From an uncultured Bdellovibrio sp. (lineage in GTDB: Bacteria; Bdellovibrionota; Bdellovibrionia; Bdellovibrionales; Bdellovibrionaceae): DNA of 64,000 nt. Below are positions 1,673 through 27,838 of the stretch, in pieces. The position numbers and the translations under genes are program-made. Each line of letters starts with the position of its first letter. Position 1 is the stretch's first letter. The stretch is from NCBI GenBank assembly GCA_963932905.1, contig CAWVRN010000003.1:220386-284385 (forward strand), given 5' to 3'. Below the pieces are notes generated by a model, which saw only the letters and a program-made list of their open reading frames with translations, was not told where the DNA came from and did not search any database.

Positions 1673-1690
1673 ATATTTAATTCCTTATAA

Positions 1691-2296
1691 TTAATGAGAG
1701 TGACCTTCGGGAGCGCCACCAAAGGCGGCGATCTCGGCAATTCTAAGTAAGCCAGTTCCTTCGACTACAATTTGATCTCCTGCTTTTAAATCTTTCGACT
1801 TAATAACAGCTTTCTTGTCAGTTTTACTGACGAAGACAAAATCCACGCGTTTGTAGTGGCTATCTCGATAGCGATATAAATTTACTTCTGTCCCTGCGGT
1901 AACGATGGCAGTTTTAGGGATTTCAAACTGTGCAGAAGCAGGAACTTGAACTTTTTTAACATCAAAGTTCTTTTCCGCTTCAGGAGAAATCTGAAAACCT
2001 TCTTCTTCACTTGCGCTTACGATTCCTTTACCTGGGCCTATGTTCTCGTTACCTTCTTCGTGACCGTGGCCTCCATGGCCGCCGCCCTCGTCATGGTCAT
2101 CATGCTTCTCGCCTTCATCTGATCCATGATCGTGATCGTCATGCTTTTCATCGCCTTCTTTTCCATGGCCTTCTTGCTTCTCGCCTTTTTCATGTTTGTG
2201 CTCGTCTTTCTTCGATTCGTTAGCCATTCCAACGTTTTCGTAGAAACAGAACATAACTAGAGCACTAAATAAGATCGTTAAAAATCTTGATCTCAT
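1691..2296 (-). CDS. His-rich, short CzcB-like periplasmic adaptor (efflux RND accessory protein)
   Basis: N-terminal signal/TM, long His/Asp/Glu/Gly tract, C-terminal IPKTAIV...LKAGDQIVVEGTGLL...GHSH like the CzcB C-terminus; lies between czcC-like and czcA. Confidence 0.75.
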   Translation of the reverse strand: MRSRFLTILFSALVMFCFYENVGMANESKKDEHKHEKGEKQEGHGKEGDEKHDDHDHGSDEGEKHDDHDEGGGHGGHGHEEGNENIGPGKGIVSASEEEGFQISPEAEKNFDVKKVQVPASAQFEIPKTAIVTAGTEVNLYRYRDSHYKRVDFVFVSKTDKKAVIKSKDLKAGDQIVVEGTGLLRIAEIAAFGGAPEGHSH

Positions 2297-3522: not shown

Positions 3523-3638
3523 TGGAATACTCCAAAAGTAAAAAGTTGTTTGTTTCGAAATCCAAAACGAAAAGCAGTAGCTAATCGATAGACTATCGAA
3601 TCGTTAAAGTTGTCTTGAGATTGGAGCCTTATAGACTC

Positions 3639-3980
3639 TTAAGATATTGGAGGACGGAAAGGGCTTGATTTAAAATCTGAAAGATTAAAGTCACCTTTTA
3701 CTGGTACGAAACCAGATAATTCATGAGTCGAAAACAAAAGTAAATTAGCGGAAATAGTAAAAGAGCAGTGCCCTAGATGACAATTATGACATGCTCTGTG
3801 TTCGTGAGATGCTTCAGAATGATTCTCATCCTGGCAAGGAACAGCTGCTTTTAAAACAGACACTTTGTCTTCACTTGAAATAGAATTACGAGGGTGAGAG
3901 TCATCGCAAGAACCGTTCACAGGTTTTGAAACGCTAACCATAGTAATTAAGATGAATAGAAAAGCCAAAAATGTTTTCAA
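3639..3980 (-). CDS. Small exported His/Cys-rich metal-binding protein (CzcI/DUF2946-like)
   Basis: Signal peptide, HEHRACHNCHLGHC cluster, C-terminal PFRPPI motif; first gene of the efflux operon. Confidence 0.65.
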   Translation of the reverse strand: MKTFLAFLFILITMVSVSKPVNGSCDDSHPRNSISSEDKVSVLKAAVPCQDENHSEASHEHRACHNCHLGHCSFTISANLLLFSTHELSGFVPVKGDFNLSDFKSSPFRPPIS

Positions 3981-4000
3981 AAACGTCCTTTATTTACTTA

Positions 4001-4029
4001 AACTTACCTCGACCTATTTTATTTGTCAA
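4001..4029 (-). promoter_or_regulatory. Sigma70-type promoter of the czc operon
   Basis: Minus strand TTGACA-17 nt-TAAGTT, then AAGGA RBS and TTG start at 3980. Confidence 0.6.
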
Positions 4030-4154
4030 AGCCGGGATCTGATATTTCAATCTTATAATCGGTAAGTTGACTTTGAGACTTAACCTCAAGAAAACATAAA
4101 GGATTTTGATTCAGATTGAGACAATTGACCTTATTTGAAATAAATTAAATGTTT

Positions 4155-4931
4155 TTAGGAGTTCGGTCGCCAGACTTTTATTTCAGCCAGTTCTTCTTCT
4201 GTGGGAGTATCTTTCTGCCATTTGGATTTCAGGAATCTGTCCGTCTCAACTTTCCAAGGTAGCTCAACTCTATTTTCGAGTAAAAATTTATACCTTTCAA
4301 CTCCCGACATTTTCTTGTTCTTCAGCCAATCTTCATATGCTGACTCTCGAATGATAAAAATGCTTCTGTCATGTCCAGCATTAAAAAATGCTTCGTAAGG
4401 GTCATCTGTAATTAATGTGAATGTTTCCTTTACTTCCCCAGTTGTTCTATTCATCCAGTCTTCCCAGAGTCCCGCGACATAGTATGTTTCTTTGTTTTCA
4501 AGGCAGAATTGAACCATTTGGCCGCCATGAGTACCGAAATAACATGATTCAATCGCTGACGTTAATGGAACTAAACAAGTGTGCCCTTTATTGAATGAGT
4601 TTCTCCATGTAGGTACTTCATAAATATATTCAATAATTTTATTTCCGTTTTTGTCCAAGACCAACTCACCCATCCTGTTTCGCTTATAACGCCGCATACG
4701 AGCATTGTAAGTGGTGGGCTTAAACGGAAATTTGCTGGCCCACTCTGGACATATGGAAAAAATTAGCTCCCTTATTTGGGTTTTTCCATTTTTGTGAACT
4801 ACAACTGGAGCCGTCTCTGTCTTTGGATATCCTCTTATCCTGAAATCAAATTCTTGCTGGACATACTTTTCGACGTCGAATTTTTTTGCGATATCTTTTG
4901 CTTTAGCGACTAGAATATATGACTCACACAT
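4155..4931 (-). CDS. SOS response-associated peptidase (SRAP/YedK/HMCES family, abasic-site crosslinking)
   Basis: Cys at position 2 (MC), YNAR motif, CLVP, AGLWEDW, TFTLIT, GHDR motif. Confidence 0.85.
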   Translation of the reverse strand: MCESYILVAKAKDIAKKFDVEKYVQQEFDFRIRGYPKTETAPVVVHKNGKTQIRELIFSICPEWASKFPFKPTTYNARMRRYKRNRMGELVLDKNGNKIIEYIYEVPTWRNSFNKGHTCLVPLTSAIESCYFGTHGGQMVQFCLENKETYYVAGLWEDWMNRTTGEVKETFTLITDDPYEAFFNAGHDRSIFIIRESAYEDWLKNKKMSGVERYKFLLENRVELPWKVETDRFLKSKWQKDTPTEEELAEIKVWRPNS

Positions 4932-5081
4932 TTTGACCTTCTATTTATGGTCGATTGATTCCAATCTAACATCAACCTGCAAATAATCTTTTCCCTGTCT
5001 ATAAGTCTAATTCAACGACATCTTTAGTCATTTAACAGGAAAGCCGTTGATTTGCACTTACATATAATTTACATATTAATC

Positions 5082-5417
5082 ATGGAACCGAAAGAGTGGC
5101 AACATTTGCTGGATTTTTTTAAGCACGTTCAAGCCAAAATTTATCGTGTAAAGTTCCATGGGACGATAACGATGGCTGACCGTAGGCGATACCAACCTTT
5201 GCTTAACAGCATTGATATATTGGTTAAAGTGGCCTCCGGTGAAATTGAACAAAGCTATCGAAATTTTAAATATTGTAGAAATGCTTGGCTAAGAGTCGTT
5301 GACCTCCTTAAAAGAGATCGGGATTTTTTTGACGAGTATAAAAAAGACAAAGAGCTAAAATTGATTTTAAGGAAATTTTTAGAAAGGGGAACAAATGATC
5401 ACCACAAAGTATATTAG
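5082..5417 (+). CDS. Hypothetical protein
   Basis: ORF (track start 5052 TTG; ATG 5082 preferred); overlaps the next ORF. Confidence 0.5.
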   Translation: MEPKEWQHLLDFFKHVQAKIYRVKFHGTITMADRRRYQPLLNSIDILVKVASGEIEQSYRNFKYCRNAWLRVVDLLKRDRDFFDEYKKDKELKLILRKFLERGTNDHHKVY

Positions 5418-5631
5418 TCCAAAATTAGGTTTTTTGAAAAGCATGCCTGCATTACTGAGCTACGTCGAAAAAATGAAGTTCGATCTAGAATCTATAATTT
5501 CAATTGAAAAGAAAGATTTTGGATACGCATTTAATGGACTTCGTTTTTCGTATCATGTCCAAACAGATTCTCAATTCAGTTTTTTTAGATTGAACCTAGT
5601 AATAAACGAAATTCAGTGTGAGGCATCGTGA
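5395..5631 (+). CDS. Hypothetical protein
   Basis: AGGGGA RBS before ATG; coupled to neighbours. Confidence 0.55.
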   Translation: MITTKYISPKLGFLKSMPALLSYVEKMKFDLESIISIEKKDFGYAFNGLRFSYHVQTDSQFSFFRLNLVINEIQCEAS

Positions 5632-5918
5632 CTCGAAGACCTCAATATCATCCTCCTGTTCCTAAAAACCCTGTATGGAAAAAGGTTGGAAATTTCTATT
5701 ACGCGGATAAAACGGAGTTTGAGAAATTGCTCAGCGAATGTGTTTTCTTAGACAGCTATATACAAAAGACTCTAGGAAACGCATACAAATATATCGGGCA
5801 TGTCTTAGCTGGAATGGGGTTAGAAGCCTCCACTGCTGTATTTGTAGAAAGCGCATTAGATTCCTCGTTGAAAAAAAACGACCATTATCCAAGAGAGCAA
5901 GTTTACAAAAACCCGTAA
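5628..5918 (+). CDS. Hypothetical protein
   Basis: GAGG RBS, GTGA start/stop overlap with the previous ORF. Confidence 0.55.
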   Translation: MTRRPQYHPPVPKNPVWKKVGNFYYADKTEFEKLLSECVFLDSYIQKTLGNAYKYIGHVLAGMGLEASTAVFVESALDSSLKKNDHYPREQVYKNP

Positions 5919-5927
5919 ATACCGTTT

Positions 5928-6143
5928 ATGAGCCCCGTCGAAACATTTATTTCTGAAAAGACGAAATTAGCCAACATCTTAAAAAGGTGGTGGCAGTATG
6001 AAGATGAAGAAATCGACTTCGACCTCGTCTTAGGAAAACTGAGGTTGTTAGTTAATCAATGCCCTGACGAGTTTGCAGAACAGTTTCAACTTGAGCTGAT
6101 CGAAATAGAAAATGACCTGAGAGAATACGGACTAATCGAATAA
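5928..6143 (+). CDS. Hypothetical acidic helical protein
   Basis: 71-aa ORF, 9 nt after the previous stop. Confidence 0.5.
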   Translation: MSPVETFISEKTKLANILKRWWQYEDEEIDFDLVLGKLRLLVNQCPDEFAEQFQLELIEIENDLREYGLIE

Positions 6144-6165
6144 AGTCCGTACTTCGTAATAAACT

Positions 6166-6579
6166 CTAATAGAGATAAATTATTACCATAAAGTTATTTT
6201 TACACCAATGAGCCCAATCACCCTCTTTAACAACTCCATGTCCAGATCGGCAAGGACCTAAATCTTTTGGGCGCGGCCAAACATCCTCAACTAGATATCG
6301 ACCTCGATCAAAAATCATTCTTCCACTTTTATCGAAAACTGCAAACCGTTCAGAGGAAGTAATGTCATACAAAAATCCATAAGAAAGCTTGTCCTTGTTT
6401 GGGAGTTTTTCTATCTCGCCTTCAGACAACGCAACCACGCCAGCGTAACCACCTTCCATGCCGCTGTCATGGAAAGTGTTCAAAGTGCCTCTCAGAAACG
6501 ACCTCTGTTCTTGATTATTAAAATCATTCAGATGAATCGGCTTTTTAGAAAAAACATTTTTAATAAATTCAAACATCAA
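6166..6579 (-). CDS. Hypothetical protein
   Basis: Strong AGGAGG RBS just upstream; 137 aa. Confidence 0.6.
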   Translation of the reverse strand: MMFEFIKNVFSKKPIHLNDFNNQEQRSFLRGTLNTFHDSGMEGGYAGVVALSEGEIEKLPNKDKLSYGFLYDITSSERFAVFDKSGRMIFDRGRYLVEDVWPRPKDLGPCRSGHGVVKEGDWAHWCKNNFMVIIYLY

Positions 6580-6591
6580 TTCCTCCTATAT

Positions 6592-6771
6592 CTATTGTGA
6601 ACTTCCCACTAGCTGCTGATTCACTTTCCTCATACTCTCTAACCCCTTCCGTGTGCTATCTAAAGCTCTGCCTTGAAGATCTGTAAGAACTGATACAAGA
6701 AAGCCAGAAATAATGAGAATCCGAATCGCACCAAATAAAATAGTAAATGATCTAAAAACTATACTCTCCAA
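6592..6771 (-). CDS. Small single-TM hypothetical protein (59 aa, not in ORF track)
   Basis: GAGGG RBS + TTG: MESIVFRSFTILFGAIRILIISGFLVSVLTDLQGRALDSTRKGLESMRKVNQQLVGSSQ*; stop 12 nt before the next gene. Confidence 0.5.
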   Translation of the reverse strand: MESIVFRSFTILFGAIRILIISGFLVSVLTDLQGRALDSTRKGLESMRKVNQQLVGSSQ

Positions 6772-6826
6772 AATTCCCTCCTGATAGGAAAGGAAAGCTT
6801 CCTTTCAAACTGTAGTCCAATCTAGA

Positions 6827-8473
6827 TTAGCCAAATGCAATAGGTTCGGTCGTTGGTCTTAGTAGTTGACGCAAGCCAGTTGGATTTTTTCCTATAATGC
6901 TTTTAATTGAACTTGAAACCTTAATCGAGTCTTTACTGCTTGAAGTCGCTAAATGGATTGAGTCAAATCCCAAATCTGAAATCCTCTCTGCATACACTTC
7001 ACCTTTAAATTCAGCGCCAAGATTAGAGTCGATAAAAATTGGCGTACAATTCCCAATAGATTTCGATTCTTCGAAAAACGATTGTACATTAGAGTAAGTT
7101 TTTATTTTAAATCCATTTTTAGAACTCCAAATTTCCCATGTTGTCCTATGAATTTCTTCGTCATCGATTAATACAAGATCCAGAGAATTTAAGTCTATTA
7201 TTTCTCGAGTCTTAGAATCTAGAATTTCCGATACAGGAAATTGGATTGTAACCTGGGTTCCTTTTCCTAATTCTGAGGATAAAGAAAAACTACCGCCAAT
7301 CTCCTTCAAGGTTTTAATTGCCGAAAAAACTCCGCGTCCAGTCCCGGTACCATTGTTTCTATGCGAGAATCCTTTGGTTCCTACTTTTCTGATAACATCA
7401 TTTGATATTCCAACGCCAGTATCCGAAATTACAATTTTAACTTCGCCTGCGTTGCAACTCAGTTCGACTTCTATCTCTTTTTCTTTCAGGCAAGCATGAA
7501 TTGAGTTATCGATAACGTTGGATAAAATTCTCGCAAGCGAAGCACTGCTTAACTTCGTCTCGACATTGAAGTTAGGAGGTCCAATGTACTTAATATTCCC
7601 TCCCACAAATAGTGGGGACTTTTCAGTGATGATATCGTTAACAGCAGTTCCAAGATTAAAACTCCTGACGTCACTCAAATTATCAATCCTCATTTCTGCC
7701 TGAAGAAGAAAATTTGCAACTGATTTGGCACGGCTTACTGCCTGGTCTAAAGCCTTTTTCAATTGATTTTGAGGTAGATCCATCAATTCCACTAAAGCGC
7801 TGATAGCCGCAATCGGACTTCGAATATCATGTGCGACTTGTTGATTATTCTCTCGAATAGCTAGCATAACCGCTTTTTCAGCCTCTATGTCTTTAGAAGT
7901 CTTAATTTTGAGTCGCAATTCATTTAGTTCGTTTATTTCTAGTGATTTATCGCCTAAAAGATTATTTATCAAAGGATCGAAAATGTCTTTTGCAATTCTC
8001 TCTTTCGTAGATTGAATAAAATAAATTCCGACAAGAACAAGAATCAGCGACCACCCCAAACTTCTGAAGATTGACCAAAAGTCGTCTAAGTAACTAAACC
8101 TTGCGCGAATAACCTGAGTTCCGGACCCAGTAATTTTCACTTCTACAATTCGCTCAAATAGCTTGCGCGATTCTGTACATGAATTTAATGACCTGTTGGC
8201 CCCAATAACTTGCGTTTCTCCAGAACAAACTTCAGCCCCAGTAGCTCCTGCTTGAGTTAAAACCATTCCCAAAATACTCTCCGCTAACACGCGGTTATTC
8301 TGATTAAAAGCGAGACTCAAGAGATCAGCAGTTTGCTTAACGTATGTATCGTTTTTTACCTGTATCGCATAGAAAGATCGTACAGAAAAAAAGACCCAAA
8401 CAGAGATCATAAAAAGAGCCACGATCATTTGTGGTCTAGTGTGGTACTTTTTTAACCATTCTTTTAATGTCAT
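6827..8473 (-). CDS. Membrane hybrid sensor histidine kinase (2 TM, periplasmic domain, HisKA, HATPase_c, C-terminal receiver)
   Basis: H-box AHDIRSP, N-box NVIDNS, G1 DTGVG, G2 GTGRG; receiver LIDDE...FIDSNLG...LATS...IGK. Confidence 0.92.
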   Translation of the reverse strand: MTLKEWLKKYHTRPQMIVALFMISVWVFFSVRSFYAIQVKNDTYVKQTADLLSLAFNQNNRVLAESILGMVLTQAGATGAEVCSGETQVIGANRSLNSCTESRKLFERIVEVKITGSGTQVIRARFSYLDDFWSIFRSLGWSLILVLVGIYFIQSTKERIAKDIFDPLINNLLGDKSLEINELNELRLKIKTSKDIEAEKAVMLAIRENNQQVAHDIRSPIAAISALVELMDLPQNQLKKALDQAVSRAKSVANFLLQAEMRIDNLSDVRSFNLGTAVNDIITEKSPLFVGGNIKYIGPPNFNVETKLSSASLARILSNVIDNSIHACLKEKEIEVELSCNAGEVKIVISDTGVGISNDVIRKVGTKGFSHRNNGTGTGRGVFSAIKTLKEIGGSFSLSSELGKGTQVTIQFPVSEILDSKTREIIDLNSLDLVLIDDEEIHRTTWEIWSSKNGFKIKTYSNVQSFFEESKSIGNCTPIFIDSNLGAEFKGEVYAERISDLGFDSIHLATSSSKDSIKVSSSIKSIIGKNPTGLRQLLRPTTEPIAFG

Positions 8474-9993
8474 TATTTCACCTTATAAATATATAGATGA
8501 CCTTCACTACGTCTTAGAATTTTTTCGCTGATGGAGACCTTGTCATTTCTGTAAACAGCGACCGACTTTACAAAACCCAGGTGGACGATTGGTACTTCAT
8601 CGAGAATTACTTTACTTACTTTCTTATAGAAAGGGTCGATTTCATCACGCTTAACGATTTTTCGCCCCTCTTCAAGAATATCTCCAACCTTTTTATTCTT
8701 TAGCATTGGACTCGCGATGGCACCTTGTGGGCCAAGCAAATGATATATTCCATCCGGGTCGCCAGAGGCCACTCCGAAAGCTCCTGGAATAATGTCGGCT
8801 TCTTGGCCATCGTAAATCGCTTTAATTAAATCGCTTTTCGATACAATTCTGGATTTATCCGAAATGGTAAGTCCTACTGATTCAAGAAAATGTCGTATTG
8901 AGACTTCTTGAACTTCCAAAAGTACGATTGGATTTAGTTTTGAAGCATCCCTTAATTCATCAACAAACTTTTTACCCTGTTCAACTCGACTTAGAACTTC
9001 TGACTCATCTATTCTCCCCGCCTGGTAAGGTAGGTACACTTGAGGATCTTGATTAGAAAAGTTTGGGTTACCGAGCAACGAATGATCTTTTTTCGCAAAT
9101 TCATAAGCCAAATACTGCAACGCTTGTCGGTACTCCCTTTTTTCGAAAAGTCTTCCTTTTTGCTGGTTTGGATATATTGCCTTGTGAGCCGCATCTTGTC
9201 CTACCAACACTGATACTTTCTCGTTCGATGATACGGTTTCTGGAATGCTACTTCCCAATGCATAGGCCATGACGTCTAACTCTCCTCGGAGCAACGCTTG
9301 ATAGGAATCCGCGGTATTAATAACTCGAAGATCAATCTCGCCTTCCGGCGGTGTTTGAAATCGCATGTTTGGAACTAACCTTAAATGATCTTGACCCAAC
9401 TCACTAATCTCGTAGGCTCCGGTGCCAATAAATTTCCCTTGAACCTCACGATAGGCCGAAAATCTACTTCCAGCGAGGTGTTCCAATGCCATCCGAAAGG
9501 AGCTTGAAAAGTTCAACTCTAAGGTCTCATCATCGATAACTTTAATTCCCGAAATTGTTCCTGTTTTCTCGAATTCTGAAAATCCATCTATTTTATACAA
9601 AACATCTAACACACTATTATTCGAAGACTTCGGATCAAGCTTTAAGGCATTTTCCCATGAGCTCTTAAAATGTTTAGCTGACAACCGAACGCCATCAGCG
9701 AAAAATCTAGAAGTATCGATCTTAAAAGTTAGTTTTTTAAAATCTGGTGATGCCGACCACTCTTTGGAAGCTAGAGGAGCATACACGCCATTTTCATTGA
9801 AACTTACTAGAGCTTCAAATTGATTGCTTAAAGTTAAATCCCCAATAAGGGTATGCTGTAGTCCCGGACTAATACTTATCCAAGGACTGTTAAACGCGAT
9901 TCTTAATGGTCGAATTTCAGTAGTTGAGTTCATTTGAACAGCCCCAAATCCAAAAAGTGTTACTAATAATATAAGTCCTAATATTCTCTTCAT
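8473..9993 (-). CDS. Family-5 (Opp/Dpp-type) extracellular solute-binding protein with no permease or ATPase genes nearby
   Basis: Signal peptide; FEALV...PLASKEW..SPD...TFKI...FADG...SAKH; GTGAY; C-terminal ILDEVPIVHL. Confidence 0.88.
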   Translation of the reverse strand: MKRILGLILLVTLFGFGAVQMNSTTEIRPLRIAFNSPWISISPGLQHTLIGDLTLSNQFEALVSFNENGVYAPLASKEWSASPDFKKLTFKIDTSRFFADGVRLSAKHFKSSWENALKLDPKSSNNSVLDVLYKIDGFSEFEKTGTISGIKVIDDETLELNFSSSFRMALEHLAGSRFSAYREVQGKFIGTGAYEISELGQDHLRLVPNMRFQTPPEGEIDLRVINTADSYQALLRGELDVMAYALGSSIPETVSSNEKVSVLVGQDAAHKAIYPNQQKGRLFEKREYRQALQYLAYEFAKKDHSLLGNPNFSNQDPQVYLPYQAGRIDESEVLSRVEQGKKFVDELRDASKLNPIVLLEVQEVSIRHFLESVGLTISDKSRIVSKSDLIKAIYDGQEADIIPGAFGVASGDPDGIYHLLGPQGAIASPMLKNKKVGDILEEGRKIVKRDEIDPFYKKVSKVILDEVPIVHLGFVKSVAVYRNDKVSISEKILRRSEGHLYIYKVK

Positions 9994-9995
9994 GA

Positions 9996-10340
9996 CTAAC
10001 TCTGTATGATATGGCTAGCACCAGCCGTAATGATCGTTTTCTCGTCCATTTGGATATAACCGTTCTCCATCATGAATTGAATCGCCTTAGCAAAGCTTTC
10101 ATCAAGGATCTCACCATTCAATCCCGTTAGCTCAGAATACCTTTGACGAGCCGATTCTAGATCAATCTGCCTCTGTCCGGTGGGAAGTAAAAGATATCTG
10201 ATTTGTCTAGCTGTTTCCCGTAGAATCCACTTTTGATTCTCGCCCTCAATCTCACTTGCTTTCCCATAAGCAGCAACTGCGACAGATGAAATTGGCATGT
10301 AGCTCAATATCAAAAGCATAATCTTTAAAATTTTCTTCAT
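9996..10340 (-). CDS. Small secreted protein; candidate radical SAM substrate/precursor
   Basis: Sec signal (MKK..hydrophobic..AVA|A); ATGA overlap with the radical SAM gene; function inferred from context only. Confidence 0.6.
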   Translation of the reverse strand: MKKILKIMLLILSYMPISSVAVAAYGKASEIEGENQKWILRETARQIRYLLLPTGQRQIDLESARQRYSELTGLNGEILDESFAKAIQFMMENGYIQMDEKTIITAGASHIIQS

Positions 10341-11407
10341 AAAACCCCCGTCTTATTTAATTCAAAATTTTCTTTCCAGCACCCTGGGTCAGGACCCAAA
10401 AAATTTCCAGTAGCAGCATACGCCGCATTCCTATCGCCCCCACATACTTCATAATGAGGACACTTTCCGCAAACTTCTACATTGCCTGCCCTTAGTTCTT
10501 TATAAATTGAATTGTTCAAATAAACTGATTCAAGCCCGTCTCTCAATGAGTGCCCTAATTTAATTTTAGATCGGCTGCTTGCGATTATATAGCCCTGATA
10601 GTCCACAACTATTAGTTCCCAATATCGACCGCTCCGTCCTAATCCAGGAATTAGCAGCTCAAATAGTGGACTCTGCGTAGCGCTCCTTACTTGGTACTTT
10701 GTAATAAAATGAATGATATTTCGATAGGCCGCTTTTAGTTCAGCGCCTTCTAACGGACGATCTTCAGAAGCGTCCAGCAAACGTCTACCATATCCTTCTG
10801 GAACAAAACGAACGAAATTTACGGATTTAAACTTGAATTCCTTTGCAAGTTTAAAAAAGTCTTCCATCCACCCACTAGTGCGATAAGAAAGCACTGACAA
10901 CACATTTACATTCATATTAAGTGCGAGGAGGTTATTAATACCATCAAGAGCCTTATCAAAATTTCCTTCTCCCCGAATGCGATCATGTCGTTTAGAGTCT
11001 GGACCATCTAGGCTCACCTGAAATTCGATATCTCCCAATGATTTCAGCTTTCTTGCTAATTCTTTGGTAACAAGTGTTCCGTTTGTAAGGATACAAATCT
11101 TTGCTCCAGGAATATTCTCTCGAATGTATTCTAATATTGGAAATAAGTGGGGGCTTACCATAGGTTCACCCCCGCAAAGTACAATCCAAGGCCGATAGTA
11201 CATTTTGCGAATGAGTGCCTTGTACTGACGCAATATTTCTTTCCACTCATTCAAAGATAAAGCACCTTCATTTTTATGGTCAGGATGGTAACAATGCACA
11301 CAACGTAAGTTACATGAATTGGTAATGTCTAACTGAATAGGAAGATACCTATCGACATTGATGGTTTTTAGCAAAAAGGCCTCAAGAATGTTATTTAGAA
11401 ACTTCAT
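10337..11407 (-). CDS. Radical SAM enzyme with SPASM-type C-terminal domain (PqqE/NirJ-like)
   Basis: CNLRCVHC (CxxxCxxC), GGEP, TNGTL, SLDG..HD.IRG.G.F; C-terminal CGKC-x5-C...GNFLGPDPGC. Confidence 0.92.
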   Translation of the reverse strand: MKFLNNILEAFLLKTINVDRYLPIQLDITNSCNLRCVHCYHPDHKNEGALSLNEWKEILRQYKALIRKMYYRPWIVLCGGEPMVSPHLFPILEYIRENIPGAKICILTNGTLVTKELARKLKSLGDIEFQVSLDGPDSKRHDRIRGEGNFDKALDGINNLLALNMNVNVLSVLSYRTSGWMEDFFKLAKEFKFKSVNFVRFVPEGYGRRLLDASEDRPLEGAELKAAYRNIIHFITKYQVRSATQSPLFELLIPGLGRSGRYWELIVVDYQGYIIASSRSKIKLGHSLRDGLESVYLNNSIYKELRAGNVEVCGKCPHYEVCGGDRNAAYAATGNFLGPDPGCWKENFELNKTGVL

Positions 11408-11609
11408 TCCCGCTCACCTTTTGCTGTATTGATTCTAATTCCTTAGCAATCATTTCGATCTTAGCAATGGCCTGTTTGTGAATCTTTGAAGACAGTTCTT
11501 GCTCATCAGATTCGCTAAGCTCTCTAGAATATTCTAGAGGTCCAACGAGTCCGAGGATATCATGCTTTAAACTCTCGATATCGATAGATTTACCCTCTAA
11601 ATATTTCAT
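11391..11609 (-). CDS. 72-aa helical protein resembling a stand-alone HisKA/DHp phosphoacceptor
   Basis: LKHDI H-box-like motif followed by a helix-loop-helix pattern; ATGA overlap with the response regulator. Confidence 0.55.
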   Translation of the reverse strand: MKYLEGKSIDIESLKHDILGLVGPLEYSRELSESDEQELSSKIHKQAIAKIEMIAKELESIQQKVSGNEVSK

Positions 11610-13135
11610 AAAGAGCCCTCCATATTTATCGAGTATTGTCTCTGTTTGGTCGTGTAGGTGTTCGTTGAAATCTTCAACAACTCTGCACCTTTTCTAATAG
11701 ATGTCTCATTCCTGTGGAGTTCTTCAAAAATTCTTCTCTCAAAAATCTCTGTAGCTATCTTGAGGCCTGGGAAATCTGCGTCGATGAAATTAGTTCGCAT
11801 CGTTTGGAGATGAGCAATATTCAAAACTTCATTTCTTTTTAAAGCAACAGGAACAGTGAGACCTATTGTCTTTTTCCATTCCTTAAGGTTTGGGCGACCA
11901 CCTTCATCGTATTTGGTATGAGCAACAAGTCTCTCGACATCGTTTTCTATTCCGCGAATATTTCCCGGGATCTCATCTCTACCAAAATACTCAAGCAAGT
12001 CTTTCGGTAGATCATGAATTTCAATTTGTTTATTTTTGTGTTCAGCACACGCCCTATTGAGAAATCCAGAAATAAGCGCTGGAATATCTTCTTTCCGATC
12101 ACTTAGTTTCGGCATCATAATTTCAAAGATTGAAATACGCATATAGAGATCTTCTCTAAATTTTCCTTCAGCAACTAGCTTCTTCAGATCCTTGTTAGTT
12201 GCAAAAATAAAGCGGGCATTGGTTTTAATAGGACGATTTCCTCCAACTCTATAGTATTCTTTTTCTTCAACTACTTTTAATAATTTGAGTTGAAGTTCAA
12301 GAGAAGCATCCCCTACCTCGTCTAAGAAAATATCGCCATCTCTCGCAACATCCAGAAGGCCCGCCTTTGTCTGTTTTGAAGCATCCGTAAATGCTCCCGG
12401 TTCTGTGCCGAACAGAATGGCTTCGGCCATGTTACGCTCAGTCGCCCCTATATTTAACTGCACAAACTCACGCGCACTCTGTGATTTAGAATCTTTGCTG
12501 AACTCACTCAGTCTTCTTGCCGCCGCACCTTTTCCTAGGCCAGTATCCCCTAGTATAAGCACGGGTCTCGACGTTTCACTCAATGCATTTAATTTTTCGC
12601 TCAATCTTTGCATTACCGGAGACTCACAAACATACGTCGAATAAAGGCCTTTTTTTCCCGGAGAACTATTTTTAGTTTTTGCGAAATCTTCAAAAAAAGA
12701 CATGAATGATTTTTTAATTATTTCTAGTCTTAGTTCAGTAGACGCATCGTCAAATGATTTAAATAGATAATTTGATGCACCTAACTTAATTGCGCGAGCA
12801 ATTTCTCTCGTCGAAACATCTGAAGTTAAAACTAGAAACTGGGATAATGGTTGGATTGATTTCAATTCCACTAGAAAGTCGATACCGTTTAATTTCTTTC
12901 CCTTTTTATCAACTCCCAGATCTTTATCCAACAGTACTAAATGTATCTTACTATCCGCTAAGAGGTCCTTTGCATCGGTCACATTGCTTGCACAAAGGAA
13001 ATTAATTTGGTCAGTACTATTTAAAGTCTTCTCCTCAACCAATTTGGAAAATATTTTTCGGCACATACCTTCTGTTGTGGTCTGCCACATTGGCTCATCA
13101 TCAATAATTAGAACTTGAATATTTTTAGAAATCAC
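11606..13135 (-). CDS. Sigma54-dependent response regulator (REC-AAA+-HTH, NtrC/LuxO-like)
   Basis: IIDDE...LLDKDL...LTS..K receiver; Walker A GDTGLGK; GAFTDA loop; FLDEV; FREDLYMRI; PGNIR; C-terminal HTH. Confidence 0.93.
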   Translation of the reverse strand: MISKNIQVLIIDDEPMWQTTTEGMCRKIFSKLVEEKTLNSTDQINFLCASNVTDAKDLLADSKIHLVLLDKDLGVDKKGKKLNGIDFLVELKSIQPLSQFLVLTSDVSTREIARAIKLGASNYLFKSFDDASTELRLEIIKKSFMSFFEDFAKTKNSSPGKKGLYSTYVCESPVMQRLSEKLNALSETSRPVLILGDTGLGKGAAARRLSEFSKDSKSQSAREFVQLNIGATERNMAEAILFGTEPGAFTDASKQTKAGLLDVARDGDIFLDEVGDASLELQLKLLKVVEEKEYYRVGGNRPIKTNARFIFATNKDLKKLVAEGKFREDLYMRISIFEIMMPKLSDRKEDIPALISGFLNRACAEHKNKQIEIHDLPKDLLEYFGRDEIPGNIRGIENDVERLVAHTKYDEGGRPNLKEWKKTIGLTVPVALKRNEVLNIAHLQTMRTNFIDADFPGLKIATEIFERRIFEELHRNETSIRKGAELLKISTNTYTTKQRQYSINMEGSL

Positions 13136-13200
13136 TGAAGGCCCCCACCTTTTCGACGAGACTGACTCTAGTTTTTTTGTTTCAGTTTTTGAAGCGCAAA

Positions 13201-13264
13201 TGTCTCACTCTGTAAAGATTCTATGTCTCAATCTTTGCGTCTCAATGTCTGAGACATTGAGACA
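13201..13264. promoter_or_regulatory. Cluster of GTCTCA / TGAGAC half-sites; candidate activator (enhancer) binding sites
   Basis: TGTCTCA at 13201 and 13224, GTCTCA at 13239, TGAGACA at 13250 and 13258, in the divergent intergenic region. Confidence 0.55.
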
Positions 13265-13354
13265 CCCATTTCAATTCTCCAAAAAACGTACTTTTCGATC
13301 ATTACCTCAGAATTCTAACCAGTTAGGCCCTCATGCAAACATTGATTGAAGCCG

Positions 13355-13369
13355 TGGCATGGTACTTGT
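13355..13369 (+). promoter_or_regulatory. Candidate sigma54 (-24/-12) promoter for the transfer operon
   Basis: TGGCATGGTACTTGT = GG-N10-GT (one mismatch to GG-N10-GC), ~60 nt upstream of ATG 13428. Confidence 0.5.
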
Positions 13370-13427
13370 CGTAAAACTATGCCAACACCTTTTCCGAGCT
13401 GAAAAGTGACAATATTTGGGGGTAAAT

Positions 13428-13730
13428 ATGAAAAACAAAATCACGAAAATTGATACTAAGACTAAGGAATTTTTATTCAAAAAGTGTCCTTCATGCCAAA
13501 GCACTGAAATTCTAAAACTCGAAGAAGATACAATTTGCCTAAGCTGCGATTGGAACTCCGCTCAAATGGATGTTACTTCGGGAAACTTCGAGAAGCGCCT
13601 CGCACTTAACGCCTTCGCCGCCAAACAAGAGAAACCAATTCGAGTAAGATCCAAGATTCTGCACCTTGATACTCCGGAATCAGACGCCACTCCAAATCAA
13701 GAGCATTTATCATTAGCGGCCTGTGAGTAA
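13428..13730 (+). CDS. Small zinc-ribbon protein
   Basis: CPSC-x13-CLSC; GGGGG RBS before ATG 13428. Confidence 0.65.
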   Translation: MKNKITKIDTKTKEFLFKKCPSCQSTEILKLEEDTICLSCDWNSAQMDVTSGNFEKRLALNAFAAKQEKPIRVRSKILHLDTPESDATPNQEHLSLAACE

Positions 13731-13733
13731 CTC

Positions 13734-13943
13734 ATGCTGGCTTATATTCTTGAAAATTCAGACGCAACCGATTCTCAAGACGGTTCGATTTTGGTGAATT
13801 CAAAAAATTGGTCATCAGAAGATTGGGAAAACTATTTGAAAACAATTGAATCTGAAAATCCCGAGGAGGAAGTATATGTTGGTACTGCAAACGATCTCGA
13901 AAATTTCGTCGCGTACAAAAAGAACAATTCGAGACTATATTAA
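13734..13943 (+). CDS. Hypothetical acidic protein
   Basis: ORF 3 nt after the previous stop. Confidence 0.5.
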   Translation: MLAYILENSDATDSQDGSILVNSKNWSSEDWENYLKTIESENPEEEVYVGTANDLENFVAYKKNNSRLY

Positions 13944-14073
13944 TGGTTGGATCTCCCATCATTCGATTGAGCATCAATGGAATTCTAGAGAGGCCGTCAC
14001 TAAGTGGAGAAACGGAGACAAAATTAACGTAGCTCTCTAACCGCTCCAATCCAAGCCACTTTTTCAAATTCAA

Positions 14074-14490
14074 ATGAGCAAAGGAATACCTATGACAACT
14101 ATTGATATTAAAAATCGATTTCACGTTTATACCGGCTTCAAAGAAGCGGCTGGAGTGAGGAACGCACTTCAGGCAGGAGAAGCCTACGAGGTTAATTCTC
14201 CTGAAAAACCACACTATATAGTTAAGATGTGGGCGTTTCCAAGAGAGCTGTTCTATTTGGTAGCTAACAAGACAGGAGACGGAAATTTCACTCTGTTTGC
14301 GAAAAAGGTTATCGGAAATGATGTTCCAACTTTTCGCCGCCCAGTCGGATTCGGTTTTGTTTCCAAAGATCTAAAGAGGCATCTTGAAATTCAATTCACG
14401 TTTCCAAGACAGCGAGTATTTATGAGCTTGTTTCCCGATCAGGTAACAATCGACAGTCTTATTTCGGAAAGTGGCGGAGTTGACCTATGA
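14074..14490 (+). CDS. Hypothetical beta-rich basic protein (possibly nucleic-acid binding); start may be 14092
   Basis: AAGGA RBS before ATG 14092; ATGA overlap with the next gene. Confidence 0.6.
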   Translation: MSKGIPMTTIDIKNRFHVYTGFKEAAGVRNALQAGEAYEVNSPEKPHYIVKMWAFPRELFYLVANKTGDGNFTLFAKKVIGNDVPTFRRPVGFGFVSKDLKRHLEIQFTFPRQRVFMSLFPDQVTIDSLISESGGVDL

Positions 14491-14807
14491 GTTCGTTCGG
14501 CAATATTCCCGTAACACTACTATTTCGATGTGATCTTAGAGACACGGCAGCGCTCGTTGGACTTGTTGAAATGAAAAAAAGAATTGGCACCATCGCCTAC
14601 ACTGGCCCCCTAGAGATGAAGAATCTGGATTATATTGGACTTCTTAATTCCTGGCTTCGCCTTCGCGGGCAGCCAATTATTTCGATTCACCCGCATTTAA
14701 AGGTCGAACAACTTGAACGAATAGTAGATCCAATTTCCGAATGGGGTTGGAAAACTTCAGAGTGTGTTGCTGCCATCAACTTAGCCGGACTGCCCTTACC
14801 AAATTAA
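14487..14807 (+). CDS. Hypothetical protein
   Basis: GGAG RBS, coupled ORF. Confidence 0.6.
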   Translation: MSSFGNIPVTLLFRCDLRDTAALVGLVEMKKRIGTIAYTGPLEMKNLDYIGLLNSWLRLRGQPIISIHPHLKVEQLERIVDPISEWGWKTSECVAAINLAGLPLPN

Positions 14808-14825
14808 TTTTTATCAGGAGAAAAA

Positions 14826-15191
14826 ATGGAAAAGAAAATTTCAAACTCGATTAGTGCCTTGTACCTATCCGCTATCGCTACAACTTTGTGGTCGTTTATG
14901 GCTTTCCTTGAAATTCAACAGCTAAATGCTGGATTTGAACTCGAACCATTCACTACCCCATTCACAGCCATTCGTTTCGCATTCGGACCGATCCTATTTG
15001 GAGTTTTAACCTTTTTCGTTGCGCAAGAGCTCAGAAAAAAAACTAAGTGGTCGTGGATTTGCGCAATTGCTCTGTTCGTTTTCAATTCCGTCGGCTTCGC
15101 ATTCGTATTTTCAATTTATGGAATAGTACAATTGTGCGACCAGGAAGTAAGGGAATATTTTCTAAAGCAAATGGACTTTAACCTGAATTAG
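14826..15191 (+). CDS. Small multi-TM membrane protein
   Basis: Three to four hydrophobic segments; AGGAG RBS. Confidence 0.65.
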   Translation: MEKKISNSISALYLSAIATTLWSFMAFLEIQQLNAGFELEPFTTPFTAIRFAFGPILFGVLTFFVAQELRKKTKWSWICAIALFVFNSVGFAFVFSIYGIVQLCDQEVREYFLKQMDFNLN

Positions 15192-15252
15192 CCTCAACGA
15201 AATCATTTCGTAAATTTAAGAGCCACTTAACCCACAAACAAAGGAATGGAAC

Positions 15253-15534
15253 ATGAAAATGTCCAACGGTTTGTTTGCGATTGTGTTGGCTCTATCGTTG
15301 TTTATGCCACTTACAGGTTTCTGTAGTGTCGAATCCACCCTAGGGACAATTCAATCCAAACTAATAAATCAAATTCTACCACTATGCGCGGTACTGGGAC
15401 TGGTGTTTGCCGCTTTCTCATTTTTTACGGGAAATGCAAATGCTCGGTCCCATCTATGGCTCGCGATTATGGGAATGGTCATTGGTTTCGGTGCGCCTAG
15501 TATTATGACCTTTATTCGCGGCTTAGTTAACTAA
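15253..15534 (+). CDS. virB2: VirB2/TrbC-like conjugative pilin
   Basis: Signal peptide plus two hydrophobic helices ending IIGFGAPSI-like (MVIGFGAPSIM); precedes VirB3/VirB4. Confidence 0.8.
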   Translation: MKMSNGLFAIVLALSLFMPLTGFCSVESTLGTIQSKLINQILPLCAVLGLVFAAFSFFTGNANARSHLWLAIMGMVIGFGAPSIMTFIRGLVN

Positions 15535-15573
15535 ATTCGAAATCTCATTAGCCACTCTACCCTTTTTTGCGGG

Positions 15574-15897
15574 ATGCAAATGCCATTAAAAACGGAACCA
15601 ACTAGCCACAGTTTAGAAAGAAAATTATTAATATTAGGATACGAAGTTCCGGACGTCCTGGCTATTTTTCTGCTACTCTCAATCCTTAATTTTTTATTCG
15701 GATCAACAAACCAAAAATTACTTCTGGTCTGGCTTCCCGTCGTCGTTGTGGCGCTGGTACTAAAAATAGGTAAACGAGGAAAACCAGATAATTATTTAAT
15801 TCATCTTGCAAAATTTCAGTTTAATCCAAAATACCTGTCTGCCTTCAGTGAGCCGTCGAACTCAAAACCTTCACCAAAAATAGGAAAAACAAAATGA
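15574..15897 (+). CDS. VirB3/TraL-like inner-membrane T4SS protein
   Basis: Two TM, SL.R.LLILG motif, GKPDNYL; ATGA overlap with VirB4. Confidence 0.7.
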   Translation: MQMPLKTEPTSHSLERKLLILGYEVPDVLAIFLLLSILNFLFGSTNQKLLLVWLPVVVVALVLKIGKRGKPDNYLIHLAKFQFNPKYLSAFSEPSNSKPSPKIGKTK

Positions 15898-18296: not shown

Positions 18297-18306
18297 AGGT
18301 GTAAAG

Positions 18307-18993: not shown

Positions 18994-19001
18994 AGAATTT
19001 T

Positions 19002-20503: not shown

Positions 20504-20544
20504 CAAATCATAAGAGACACAAATTTCAAAAGCTTGGACAAAAA

Positions 20545-21784: not shown

Positions 21785-21839
21785 ACTCTCATTAAAAAAA
21801 GATTCTTAATAAGTCACTACCTTAAAAAAAGCGGTAAAT

Positions 21840-23309: not shown

Positions 23310-23311
23310 GC

Positions 23312-24742: not shown

Positions 24743-24785
24743 AATTTCAAATCAAGAGCCACCGAAATTACATCAAGGATAACTT

Positions 24786-27821: not shown

Positions 27822-27838
27822 TAAACCAATAAATTAAG

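Follow-up and report, generated by a model that had tools for sequence, protein, structure and literature searches.

A candidate peptide signal-and-receptor module beside the transfer genes of a conjugative element in an uncultured Bdellovibrio

A six-gene operon in the genome of an uncultured Bdellovibrio sp. probably forms the signal-and-receptor module of an ICE, in which, judging from its sequence, a modified secreted peptide would control conjugative T4SS genes. The operon lies in a window of 64,000 nt (assembly GCA_963932905.1, contig CAWVRN010000003.1, positions 220,386-284,385, forward strand), and all positions given here are numbered within this 64-kb window. The original prediction was of a relay that makes, exports and senses its own modified peptide and may thereby gate ICE transfer by cell density. 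Conservation of the genes as a unit, a binding protein without a permease, linkage to T4SS genes and a promoter-like element speak for it, whereas a full SPASM motif and a recognition domain are missing from the enzyme.

Six minus-strand ORFs (6827-8473, 8473-9993, 9996-10340, 10337-11407, 11391-11609 and 11606-13135) make up the operon. The ORF listing reproduces every tight junction named earlier: overlaps of 1 nt at 8473, 4 nt at 10337-10340, 17 nt at 11391-11407 and 4 nt at 11606-11609, and a 2-nt gap at 9994-9995 between the binding-protein and 114-aa genes. No terminator-like sites were found on the operon strand within 6827-13135. Short RNA-library contigs from two studies map onto the cassette, one of them covering 9893-10412; such contigs may derive from DNA, and they give neither strand nor level. 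The six-gene unit contains no protease or exporter genes and no immunity or ABC-export gene. Its head-to-head placement with the transfer genes was correctly described, the plus-strand genes from 13416 onwards including VirB2, VirB3-like, VirB4/TraC, VirB6, VirB10 and an FtsK-like ATPase.

Conservation of the genes as a unit, set beforehand as a point on which the proposal could fall, is found: the core order of radical SAM enzyme, small signal-peptide protein, family-5 binding protein and hybrid kinase recurs in 28 other Bdellovibrionota loci (29 orthologous loci with the window). A small signal-peptide ORF lies directly 3′ of the enzyme gene in 27 of the 29, the binding-protein gene comes next in 23, the kinase gene follows in 22 of those 23, and the activator is directly upstream in 13 of the 29. 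The enzyme occurs in 5 of 60 related genomes, in none of nine of the same genus and in 15 of the 400 genomes that were sampled from the phylum. The proposed linkage to the T4SS is borne out in part: VirB4 lies within the fetched stretch in six loci (the window, L018, L038, L026, L117 and L121) and a coupling protein at L012 raises the loci with a T4SS link to seven, whereas tblastn found no T4SS genes in about half of the radical SAM-type loci with long flanks.

The radical SAM enzyme (10337-11407, minus strand; 356 aa; Pfam Radical_SAM PF04055, E = 9e-27) carries a CX3CX2C motif whose cysteines, C32, C36 and C39, are invariant in the family alignment. The SPASM motif, which the enzyme had also been credited with, has seven cysteines and two auxiliary clusters. 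We reject the full motif here and regard the region as degenerate: in the family alignment the conserved C-terminal cysteines are limited to C313-X2-C316-X5-C322-X20-C343, a single auxiliary-cluster motif (CX2CX5CX20C), the cysteines of the first cluster are absent, and Ser277 occupies the position of the GX4C cysteine. A PqqD-like peptide-recognition domain is neither fused to the enzyme, whose cluster motif starts at residue 32, nor encoded by a separate gene of the unit. None of the NCBIfam models reached its cut-off; the best curated-family matches, AhbD (127 of 500 bits), TIGR04053 and NirJ, all lie far below theirs and cover mainly the generic core. AhbD and NirJ are haem-pathway enzymes. 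By profile search, the nearest solved relatives are the maturases SkfB (E = 3.5e-21), anSME (4.9e-19) and PqqE (full length), with which the enzyme is also compared for its adjoining small ORF, but from which it differs in its one auxiliary cluster, its lack of a recognition domain, its scores below every curated-family cut-off and a candidate substrate without Cys.

The identity of the curated matches, the single auxiliary-cluster motif with no peptide-recognition domain, and the metal chelates bound by some family-5 binding proteins would all suit an enzyme that makes a small non-peptide molecule sensed by the binding protein, the small protein being unrelated to the chemistry. We hold this to be highly improbable, since the curated matches are so far under their cut-offs and mainly of the generic core, the genes for the enzyme and the small protein overlap in 27 of the 29 loci, and a YcaO-like enzyme, of a peptide-acting class, replaces the radical SAM enzyme in the sister modules described below.

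The 114-aa protein (9996-10340, minus strand) is, from its context and a structure model, the candidate precursor or signal protein. As first proposed, it is predicted to be secreted: a Sec-type signal peptide, with an N-terminal hydrophobic segment at residues 4-26 ending in AVA-A, precedes a pro-domain and a disordered C-terminal tail, and the protein has no Cys. Pfam, NCBIfam and further family searches gave no match. The model (pLDDT 82, below 50 in the tail) suggests a helical or winged-helix-like pro-domain. The tail ends ...AGASHIIQS, with a conserved Ser, and a C-terminal Ser motif, which was defined after inspecting the sequences, matches 14 of 23 small proteins against a shuffle mean of 3.2. 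The mature part is poorly conserved among orthologues, and in forms of 49-60 aa (L023, L027, L032 and L119) the folded domain is replaced or absent and the signal peptide and C-terminal tail are kept.

Sister modules at 19 loci (L128, L129 and L131-L147), on ICE-like elements of the same genome and genus, comprise an activator, a small secreted protein, an SBP_bac_5 protein, a 267-aa YcaO-like protein and a kinase, with VirB2-B3-B4 alongside in 13 of the 19. Likeness to YcaO comes from an Atlas structure (TM 0.85, feature score 0.94), and Pfam YcaO matches 5 of 18 members of this family of about 100 proteins (best E = 1.2e-5). The sister kinases share 29% identity with the window kinase through DHp, CA and REC, the binding-protein families match by hhalign at 97%, and the window small-protein family aligns to the YcaO-type precursors (hhalign E = 9e-5). 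The two module types are thus alike in layout, in kinase and binding-protein families, in a homologous small protein and in their place beside the Zn-ribbon and T4SS genes. They differ in that the YcaO-like gene lies between those for the binding protein and the kinase, whereas in the window the radical SAM gene precedes the peptide gene; the sisters are also without the 72-aa protein, and in all 19 the small protein has a Cys, located 3-17 residues from its C-terminus, where the window protein has its tail Ser. Position beside the Zn-ribbon and T4SS leader genes is fixed across the two module types and three T4SS lineages, and on the VirB4 tree the module type must have changed at least twice, as branches supported at 100/100 require. 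Because two unrelated peptide-modifying enzyme classes occupy one slot, a self-made modified peptide signal is the best reading of the module, and because the YcaO-type sisters have a homologous precursor, it is much stronger than it would be from the window alone.

The presumed receptor begins with a family-5 (OppA-like) solute-binding protein (8473-9993, minus strand; 506 aa; Pfam SBP_bac_5, E = 2.6e-25) that has an N-terminal hydrophobic anchor and whose nearest solved relatives are OppA, DppE, MppA, NikA and PrgZ. These relatives bind oligopeptides, murein tripeptide and nickel complexes. It had been described as lacking transporter partners, and a Pfam survey indeed found no permease or ATPase gene beside it, either in the window or among the neighbours of the orthologous loci. 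The sensor histidine kinase (6827-8473, minus strand; 548 aa; Pfam HisKA and HATPase_c, and family alignment) has two hydrophobic segments, 13-37 and 132-153, that flank a periplasmic domain of ~95 aa with conserved Cys83 and Cys99; these are followed by an H-box at His215, HATPase_c and a C-terminal REC-like domain. H215, D438, D482, P531 and the Lys beside P531 are invariant in an alignment of 10 orthologues. The proposed two-TM hybrid architecture stands for the segments and the kinase core, whereas its receiver domain fails by Pfam in the window copy (REC at E = 0.28 only) and is recovered by alignment, by a Pfam REC match in orthologue L023 and by a C-terminal profile whose top PDB matches are receiver domains (4mld, E = 0.0014). 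We assign the C-terminus of the window kinase as a predicted receiver domain, and the kinase as hybrid, on this evidence.

Binding protein and kinase might instead detect a ligand of foreign origin, for instance peptides or fragments of cell wall from prey or potential recipients, with the small protein serving as a periplasmic accessory or inhibitor matured by the enzyme. The ligands of the solved relatives would be compatible with such a role, the unit encodes no protease for peptide release, and in the model the small protein folds over most of its mature length into a small domain, which is unusual in a leader peptide. That domain, however, is replaced or absent in many orthologues in which the signal peptide and tail persist, and the tail residue switches between Cys and Ser with the class of enzyme, which suggests that the enzyme acts on the tail, so that we consider a foreign ligand unlikely.

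Under the favored reading of a self-made peptide signal, the phosphorelay may include the 72-aa protein (11391-11609, minus strand), modelled as a helical hairpin (pLDDT 90; helices 11-33 and 37-70) with an invariant His16-Asp17...Pro24. Its sequences define a genuine family (24 representatives, of which 21 measure 67-85 aa), and the motif L(K/R)HD..L..P is invariant in 22 members. The motif agrees with the H-box first seen in it, whereas Pfam HisKA matches none of the 22; for the protein itself, Pfam Hpt and PDB searches gave no match. The family aligns to the DHp region of the kinases with His on His (hhalign probability 65%, E = 5.9e-5), making it a candidate DHp-like phosphotransfer or connector protein whose kinase-like nature is only suggested. 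Among the orthologous modules it is limited to the window, L018 and L038, though all the orthologous kinases are hybrid.

The sixth gene (11606-13135, minus strand) encodes a sigma-54 enhancer-binding response regulator of 509 aa with Pfam matches to Response_reg and Sigma54_activat (PF00158, E = 1.1e-49), a Walker A motif (GDTGLGKG), an AAA+ GAFTDA loop (EPGAFTDA) and a C-terminal HTH-like end. REC and AAA+ were thus rightly named, whereas the HTH has no Pfam match in the window copy and is matched (HTH_50) in orthologues. NtrC, RtcR and LuxO models matched well under their cut-offs, and a LuxO-type assignment (NCBIfam NF041946 equivalog) was rejected at 162.8 bits against a cut-off of 800; by its domains the protein is a generic REC-AAA+ activator.

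The best sigma-70-like promoter match of the region, found by consensus scan only (TTGAGA-16-TAGAAT; 13218-13245, minus strand), lies upstream of the gene for the regulator. It overlaps a perfect 12+1+12 palindrome identified by sequence inspection, GTCTCAATGTCT-G-AGACATTGAGAC (13239-13263), besides which further TGTCTCA half-sites occur at about 13200 and 13224. The palindrome is a candidate binding site for the activator, about 105 bp upstream of the -24 part of a sigma-54 -24/-12-like element, TGGCATGGTACTTGTC (13355-13370, plus strand), that faces the Zn-ribbon/T4SS operon. This element is the single occurrence in the 64-kb window of the pattern TGGCA[CT]N5TTG[CT]; it reads TGGCAT-N5-TTGTC, with correct spacing and a -12 part of TTGT, not TTGC (GT at -12). 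It forms a conserved block in the window, L018 and L038, whose spacers have otherwise diverged, and an equivalent palindrome is found at the same position in L018 and L038. The genome encodes rpoN. A looser sigma-54 pattern shows no enrichment genome-wide (58 found vs about 69 expected from uniform base frequencies), and no -24/-12 element was found before the T4SS genes in most YcaO-type loci.

The transfer-side operon opens with a small Zn-ribbon protein (CxxC...CxxC-DW; 13416-13730, plus strand), whose gene is conserved before the T4SS genes of sister elements too. The plus-strand T4SS genes (14074-23309), assigned by Pfam and NCBIfam, start with three small leader genes and include VirB2 pilin (15253-15534), VirB3-like (15574-15897), VirB4/TraC (15894-18296; 298 bits, below the equivalog cut-off), VirB5-like (18307-18993), VirB6 (19002-19961), VirB10 (20903-21784) and an FtsK-like ATPase (21840-23309). 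The element is hence predicted to carry a conjugative T4SS that includes both VirB4 and a coupling ATPase. Family searches placed the element backbone at 23312-27821 (plus strand), with a weak MobC-like match (23312-24181, E = 1.6e-5), a Gly-zipper lipoprotein, a DNA methylase (24786-26084) and a tyrosine integrase (26382-27821; PHROG integrase, E = 2.6e-13); beyond the weak MobC-like match, no relaxase family was found in the element. A tRNA-Val(GAC) gene (28065-28140, minus strand), 244 nt from the integrase gene, is the likely integration site and right end. A search of the window for direct repeats of the tRNA end gave none, and 41 kb to the left there is a tRNA fragment of 27 nt. In genome G003 the same tRNA flank is occupied by a related integrase/methylase module (88% identity), and a stretch of 18 kb, which takes in the kinase gene and the binding-protein gene in part, is 98% identical in another species (G001) whose chromosomal flank is 70-72% identical; together with the patchy distribution, these comparisons indicate that the element is horizontally mobile. 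The copy in G001 may be partial or unassembled, because this genome has no match to window positions 9808-28060.

The unit might instead be an auto-induced modified-peptide cluster carried as ICE cargo, with an antimicrobial, exclusion or predation factor as its product and only incidental nearness to the T4SS. Lantibiotic clusters likewise carry their own kinase/regulator pair, in L012, L029 and L117 the activator gene is immediately preceded by sigma-54 motifs, which suggests self-activation of the cassette, T4SS genes are absent near many loci, and a preprint (10.64898/2026.08.04.741601) reports RiPP clusters as ICE cargo in Porphyromonas. Cargo nevertheless seems to us quite improbable: the unit has none of the immunity, ABC-export or protease genes, its place beside the Zn-ribbon/T4SS leader genes is the same in both module types and across three T4SS lineages, and the promoter-like element in the window faces the transfer operon and not the cassette.

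For a module that signals to its own transfer genes, we propose the following course. In the cytoplasm, the radical SAM enzyme would modify the small protein encoded downstream, most likely in the C-terminal tail around the conserved Ser; the product would leave through Sec by its own signal peptide and be trimmed outside. The membrane-anchored OppA-like protein would capture it and, having no permease to feed, would signal to the periplasmic domain of the hybrid kinase, from which phosphate would reach the receiver domain of the sigma-54 activator, possibly via the 72-aa His-Asp protein. The activator would then bind the palindrome at 13239-13263 and act on the putative sigma-54 promoter at 13355, driving the Zn-ribbon and T4SS genes. 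Transfer machinery would thus be set by the number of neighbors making the same peptide, which could turn transfer either on (density sensing) or off (neighbors already carrying the element).

More tentatively, each conjugative element of Bdellovibrionota might have a peptide 'pheromone' channel to itself, and such channels would form a Gram-negative counterpart of Rap-Phr and pheromone-plasmid signaling made of different parts. The C-terminal tail of a Sec-exported precursor would be tailored by one of two exchangeable enzymes, a radical SAM enzyme acting on Ser or a YcaO-like one acting on Cys; an element-encoded OppA-like receptor, hybrid kinase and sigma-54 activator would switch the T4SS genes, and variants of enzyme and tail would keep channels apart among the five to seven such elements per genome. 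The natural swap of two enzyme classes lends itself to testing how mobile elements that share a host evolve signal specificity. If true, the proposal would give a function to the radical SAM family (at least 242 proteins), the YcaO-like family (about 100) and the 72-aa family, none of which has more than a generic or 'hypothetical' annotation.

A close parallel to the proposed component logic is the Vibrio LuxP-LuxQ-LuxU-LuxO relay. There a self-made signal is read by a periplasmic binding protein that has no transporter, and a hybrid kinase passes it by way of a small His phosphotransfer protein to a sigma-54 REC-AAA+ activator. The window module differs in that its binding protein is of family 5 (OppA-like) and not LuxP-like, its 72-aa protein is a predicted helical hairpin with an H-box-like motif and not an Hpt four-helix bundle like LuxU, its signal would be a ribosomal peptide and its output a T4SS operon. 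The AioX-AioS-AioR arsenite sensor links a binding protein in the periplasm to a kinase in the membrane and to a sigma-54 activator (PMC7565993, PMC5908839). That three-component logic would be common to both systems, but the ligand of AioX-AioS-AioR is an environmental oxyanion, its binding protein is of another family, and it is not known to involve an enzyme or secreted peptide or to lie on a conjugative element.

Cell-signal control of conjugation uses acyl-homoserine lactones in Proteobacteria and unmodified imported peptides in Firmicutes. In Firmicutes, ICEBs1 (RapI-PhrI) and pCF10 (PrgZ/PrgX) use unmodified peptides that enter the cell through Opp and find their receptors in the cytoplasm. 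The window module resembles these systems in an element-encoded, predicted Sec-secreted peptide with a presumed C-terminal active part, in an OppA-family protein (PrgZ is among its PDB matches) and in a signal that would inform the element whether neighbors carry it; it differs in having no permease, in its proposed detection by a membrane kinase, in its proposed sigma-54 output and in its Gram-negative host. If true, a modified ribosomal peptide sensed at the Gram-negative membrane and passed through sigma-54 to a T4SS would constitute a third design.

An ORF listing confirmed the operon as originally predicted, with six minus-strand genes and every overlapping or closely spaced stop-start junction as described. 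In order of transcription these encode a REC and sigma-54 AAA+ activator (11606–13135), a 72-aa protein (11391–11609), a radical SAM enzyme (10337–11407), a 114-aa protein (9996–10340), a family-5 solute-binding protein (8473–9993), and a kinase with HisKA and HATPase_c domains (6827–8473). No terminator-like site was found on the operon strand within 6827–13135. Pfam and NCBIfam identify four of the six products (activator, radical SAM enzyme, binding protein, and kinase), and the 114-aa and 72-aa products matched no family in Pfam, NCBIfam, or further profile searches. The activator carries a Walker A motif (GDTGLGKG) and a sigma-54 contact loop (GAFTDA), while a hydropathy script places two membrane segments in the kinase (residues 13–37 and 132–153) and an N-terminal hydrophobic segment in both the binding protein and the 114-aa protein.

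Alignment of 13 of the radical SAM enzymes shows that C32, C36, C39, C313, C316, C322, and C343 are invariant and C78 nearly so; the first SPASM cysteine pair is absent from these sequences, and Ser277 stands there after Gly272. Because its domain starts at about residue 25, the enzyme lacks a recognition domain. The CX2CX5CX20C spacing is presumably also found in the haem synthase AhbD, whose model is the best-scoring curated NCBIfam match, at 127 of 500 bits; none of these models reaches its cut-off for the enzyme, its closest relatives among solved structures are SkfB, anSME, and PqqE, and we rank a function in the haem pathway low. Searches at E ≤ 1e-30 recovered 242 family members, all with generic names, and the named sources are Bdellovibrionota. 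The distribution is patchy: the enzyme occurs in 5 of 60 related genomes, in 0 of 9 of the same genus, and in 15 of 400 sampled genomes of the phylum.

The unit around this enzyme is conserved. Across the window and 28 further orthologous loci (19 + 9; 29 in total), a small ORF with a signal-peptide-like start lies directly 3′ of the enzyme gene in 27 and is lacking in two (L033 and L034); two of the 27 ORFs run off the contig, one is frame-split, and an insertion sequence interrupts another. The binding-protein gene comes next at 23/29 loci, the other six being accounted for by contig ends, insertion sequences, L033, and L034, and it is followed by the kinase in 22 of the 23 cases, with a contig end as the single exception. 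An activator is found directly upstream at 13/29 loci, and Pfam detects no permease or ATPase among 83 neighbouring ORFs. Some genomes carry a decaying cassette: the activator gene of L028 (5314–9995) is split by an IS21-type insertion (an IstB match plus a 534-aa ORF), an insertion sequence cuts the small-protein and binding-protein genes of L013 and L120, and the binding-protein gene of L035 and L125 lies in two frames.

Across 23 orthologues of the small protein, conservation is highest in the signal peptide (LP-I/V-S/A-S/A-V-A/S-F/V-A-A). The mature part is about 25 to 110 residues long, its middle domain being of at least two unrelated kinds, and the last 14 positions usually contain, in this order, a small residue, a Ser, and an aromatic or aliphatic residue. 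This tail pattern, picked post hoc after the sequences had been viewed, is present in 14/23 orthologues; 2000 shuffles gave 3.2 on average and never more than 9. The window's own protein is modelled (pLDDT 82) with a signal helix, a long helix, a small beta-alpha-alpha-beta-beta domain, and a disordered tail (residues 106–114). Foldseek returned weak winged-helix matches only (E ~0.02), and the mature part of the 114-aa protein is accordingly described as a putative "small helical/winged-helix-like domain", with nothing more specific claimed.

When the window's proteins were searched by tblastn against the same genome, activator and kinase matches were found beside other T4SS operons. These belong to sister modules on contigs C22 (L128, C22:11001–30000, at 3478–10600 of that stretch) and C1 (L129, C1:528001–546000, at 8212–14975), with 17 more loci in relatives. 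The order on C22 and C1 is an activator (REC-AAA+-HTH_8), a 91–101-aa secreted protein with a C-terminal Cys, an SBP_bac_5 binding protein, a 267–269-aa protein, and a hybrid-type kinase, followed by two small genes with the same Zn-ribbon protein and by VirB2-B3-B4. The 267-aa protein has 102 relatives, all unnamed, and itself matches no Pfam family; Pfam YcaO is matched by 5 of 18 members of its family (best E 1.2e-5), its feature score against YcaO clusters of the ESM Atlas is 0.94, and its structure aligns to a Bdellovibrionota YcaO-like cluster of the Atlas with a TM of 0.85. PDB sequence searches with this YcaO-like protein gave no match. It is present in 11 of 60 related genomes and, within the genus, in 7 of 9. 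The five-gene order holds in 19/19 fetched loci of this YcaO type, with VirB2-B3-B4 in the fetched stretch in 13/19.

The two module types are related in their other parts. The YcaO-type small proteins carry a tail Cys 3–17 residues from the end in 19/19 loci, usually as (S/T)(I/V)C, and their profile matches the family of the window's small protein (E 9e-5, 59% probability) over the signal peptide, the helix, and an L..G.I motif before the tail. Kinases of the two types share 29% identity from DHp to receiver, and the binding proteins match at profile level (97%). Two unrelated enzyme classes, both known for tailoring ribosomal peptides, thus occupy the same slot.

A VirB4 tree of 18 rows (L026 and L121 were excluded, their VirB4 matches being split or partial) places the window with L018 and L038, all of the radical SAM type, in a 100/100 clade nested within a 100/100 clade that includes three YcaO-type rows. 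The remaining ten YcaO-type rows group apart from these, with 100/100 support, together with L130, which has neither module, and L117, of the radical SAM type, stands alone on a long branch. The tree requires at least two changes of module type. At L130 (C12:1–16000 of the same genome), a 469-aa ORF (7129–8538) is oriented divergently from the T4SS leader genes. VirB4 was found at six loci of this genome (on C1, C3, C12, and C22), with 2–7 matches each in 8 of 9 other genomes of the genus, and the load of conjugative elements is unusually high for a 4.5-Mb genome.

In an alignment of ten orthologous kinases, the periplasmic domain has an NR..LE motif and invariant Cys83 and Cys99. All ten also have His215, and in their shared C-terminal domain D438, D482, and P531 are invariant, the last with a Lys next to it. 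The top PDB matches of the C-terminal-domain profile are receiver domains (E 0.0014), and Pfam recognises two receiver stretches in the kinase of L023; on these grounds we regard the kinases as hybrid. The 72-aa protein has tblastn relatives in L018 and L038 only, and a word-based homologue search returned only itself; an HMM search of the whole library gave 24 representatives, 21 of them 67–85 aa long. His16, Asp17, and Pro24 are invariant in 22 aligned members, and the protein is modelled with confidence as a helical hairpin (pLDDT 90). Compared with the DHp region of the kinases, the family profile aligns His on His (E 5.9e-5, 65% probability; E 1.9e-4 with three family sequences). Pfam HisKA matched none of the 22 members, PDB profile searches with 3 or 22 members were empty, and Foldseek gave only unspecific helical matches to the model (all E > 1). 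The 72-aa protein may be a minimal DHp-like phosphotransfer protein or connector; it is the weakest link of the proposed relay, since other hybrid-kinase modules lack it.

Downstream of the spacer that separates them from the activator gene, the transfer genes run on the plus strand from 13416, with a Zn-ribbon protein, three small proteins, and a T4SS set identified by Pfam and NCBIfam (VirB2, VirB3-like, VirB4/TraC, VirB5-like, VirB6, VirB10, and an FtsK-like ATPase). Comparison of this spacer with those of L018 and L038 revealed one conserved block, TGGCA(T/C)-N5-TTGTC, facing the transfer genes, and about 105 bp upstream of it a palindrome, CAATGT-N5-ACATTG, in the window and L018, with a different palindrome in the same place in L038. 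The pattern TGGCA[CT]N5TTG[CT] occurs once in the 64-kb window (~0.5 expected by simple arithmetic), and rpoN is present in the genome. Two findings speak against a sigma-54 promoter: a looser pattern is not enriched genome-wide (58 found vs. ~69 expected), and the −12 of the promoter-like element reads GT. In L012, L029, and L117 a comparable element precedes the activator gene at close range, and in L012 and L121 such elements are found upstream of transfer-side genes. Among YcaO-type loci, L143, L144, and L145 share a TGGCA[CT]-N5-CTGCC block, and ten others showed no consistent sigma-54 element. The sigma-70-like sequence that scores best in the region lies on the cassette strand and overlaps the palindrome, so binding of the activator might also affect the cassette's own promoter. 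VirB4 lies within the fetched stretch in the window, L018, L038, L026, L117, and L121, and in L012 a gene for a TraG/TrwB-like coupling protein follows the kinase at a distance of 1.3 kb, giving linkage to T4SS or coupling-protein genes at 7 of the 18 loci that either contain T4SS genes or have a length of at least 14 kb. In the remaining loci, tblastn with the window's proteins found no T4SS genes, and several loci of this kind adjoin integrases, insertion sequences, or toxin-antitoxin genes.

Beyond the T4SS set lie genes for a MobC-like protein (weak match), a DNA methylase, and an integrase (PHROG integrase, E 2.6e-13), with tRNA-Val 244 nt past the integrase; no att repeats were found in the window, and profile searches of the element genes there found no relaxase family. 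The left end could be bracketed only, between positions 7100 and 11785 of the adjoining stretch L102. A second tRNA-Val(GAC) of different sequence (L102:6856–6931) and a 27-nt stretch (L102:7073–7099) that matches the central part of the tRNA-Val in the window both lie ~41 kb left of the integrase-side tRNA, and may represent a remnant or the element's far end. Element genes on the left encode an outer-membrane efflux protein and a SRAP peptidase in the window, and copper and redox genes and an RND pump beyond it. This cargo (L102:11762–19986 and window 2293–4931) comprises a Cu P-type ATPase, SCO1, PCuAC, DsbA/DsbB, an AcrB-type RND pump, the outer-membrane efflux protein, and the SRAP peptidase, and is mostly 98% identical in G001, the genome of another species of the genus. 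Identity of 98% to G001 extends over 18 kb (L102:11785–20000 and window 1–9807) to its contig end, with no match to window 9808–28060, and its chromosomal flank beyond the tRNA is only 70–72% identical. A further genome, G003, has a related integrase/methylase module (88% identity) at the same tRNA flank. Neither is usable as a cassette-free comparison, as their contigs end inside the binding-protein gene (G001) and the T4SS region (G003). To the right of the tRNA (28126–40038) lies ordinary chromosome, with genes for lipoate ligase, DnaE, GuaA, GuaB, a hexapeptide transferase, and a MiaB-like radical SAM enzyme.

A metagenome scan recovered a single identical scaffold (L103) without adding any close relative, and near-identical DNA was found in runs of 13 studies. 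Short RNA-library contigs from two studies match the cassette at 95–100% identity, one of them (520 nt) reaching from the beginning of the binding-protein gene across the small gene into the end of the enzyme gene, and in one study such contigs also fall on the Zn-ribbon, VirB2, and VirB4 genes. As RNA libraries can contain DNA, and as the contigs show neither strand nor level, they hint only weakly at transcription. Contigs of this kind from two studies, at 13330–13695 and 13878–14104, also span the Zn-ribbon gene and the region that follows, in which ORFs overlap on both strands (13732–14214, minus; 13734–13943, plus). The RNA-library contigs of X14 and X15 leave the DNA past 14340 uncovered, an absence that carries no weight.

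The original prediction held that the operon makes, exports, and senses its own modified peptide and may gate transfer of the element by cell density. The comparative evidence considerably strengthens this interpretation and supports it in part, in that the unit is conserved, repeatedly T4SS-linked, and accompanied by sister modules. Both enzyme classes are paired with small proteins that are homologous and Sec-exported, and the conserved residue in the tail differs between the classes, as expected if the small protein is the substrate. A binding protein that lacks a permease, is followed by a kinase with a periplasmic domain, and is paired with a sigma-54 activator is what a receptor would look like. 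The module's constant position next to the T4SS leader genes, together with a promoter-like element directed at them, suggests that the transfer genes are the output. We infer a mechanism in which the small protein would be modified, exported and trimmed, and bound by the binding protein, after which phosphotransfer, with the 72-aa step as its least secure part, would lead to activation or repression.

Full-text searches of literature outside subscription journals gave no description of this architecture, and the module would be a variant of signal-controlled conjugation that is not described in the literature covered. The set of binding protein, kinase, and activator follows the same receptor logic as LuxPQ and AioXSR, and RiPP clusters are described as cargo of Porphyromonas ICEs, without a sensor, in a 2026 preprint (10.64898/2026.08.04.741601).
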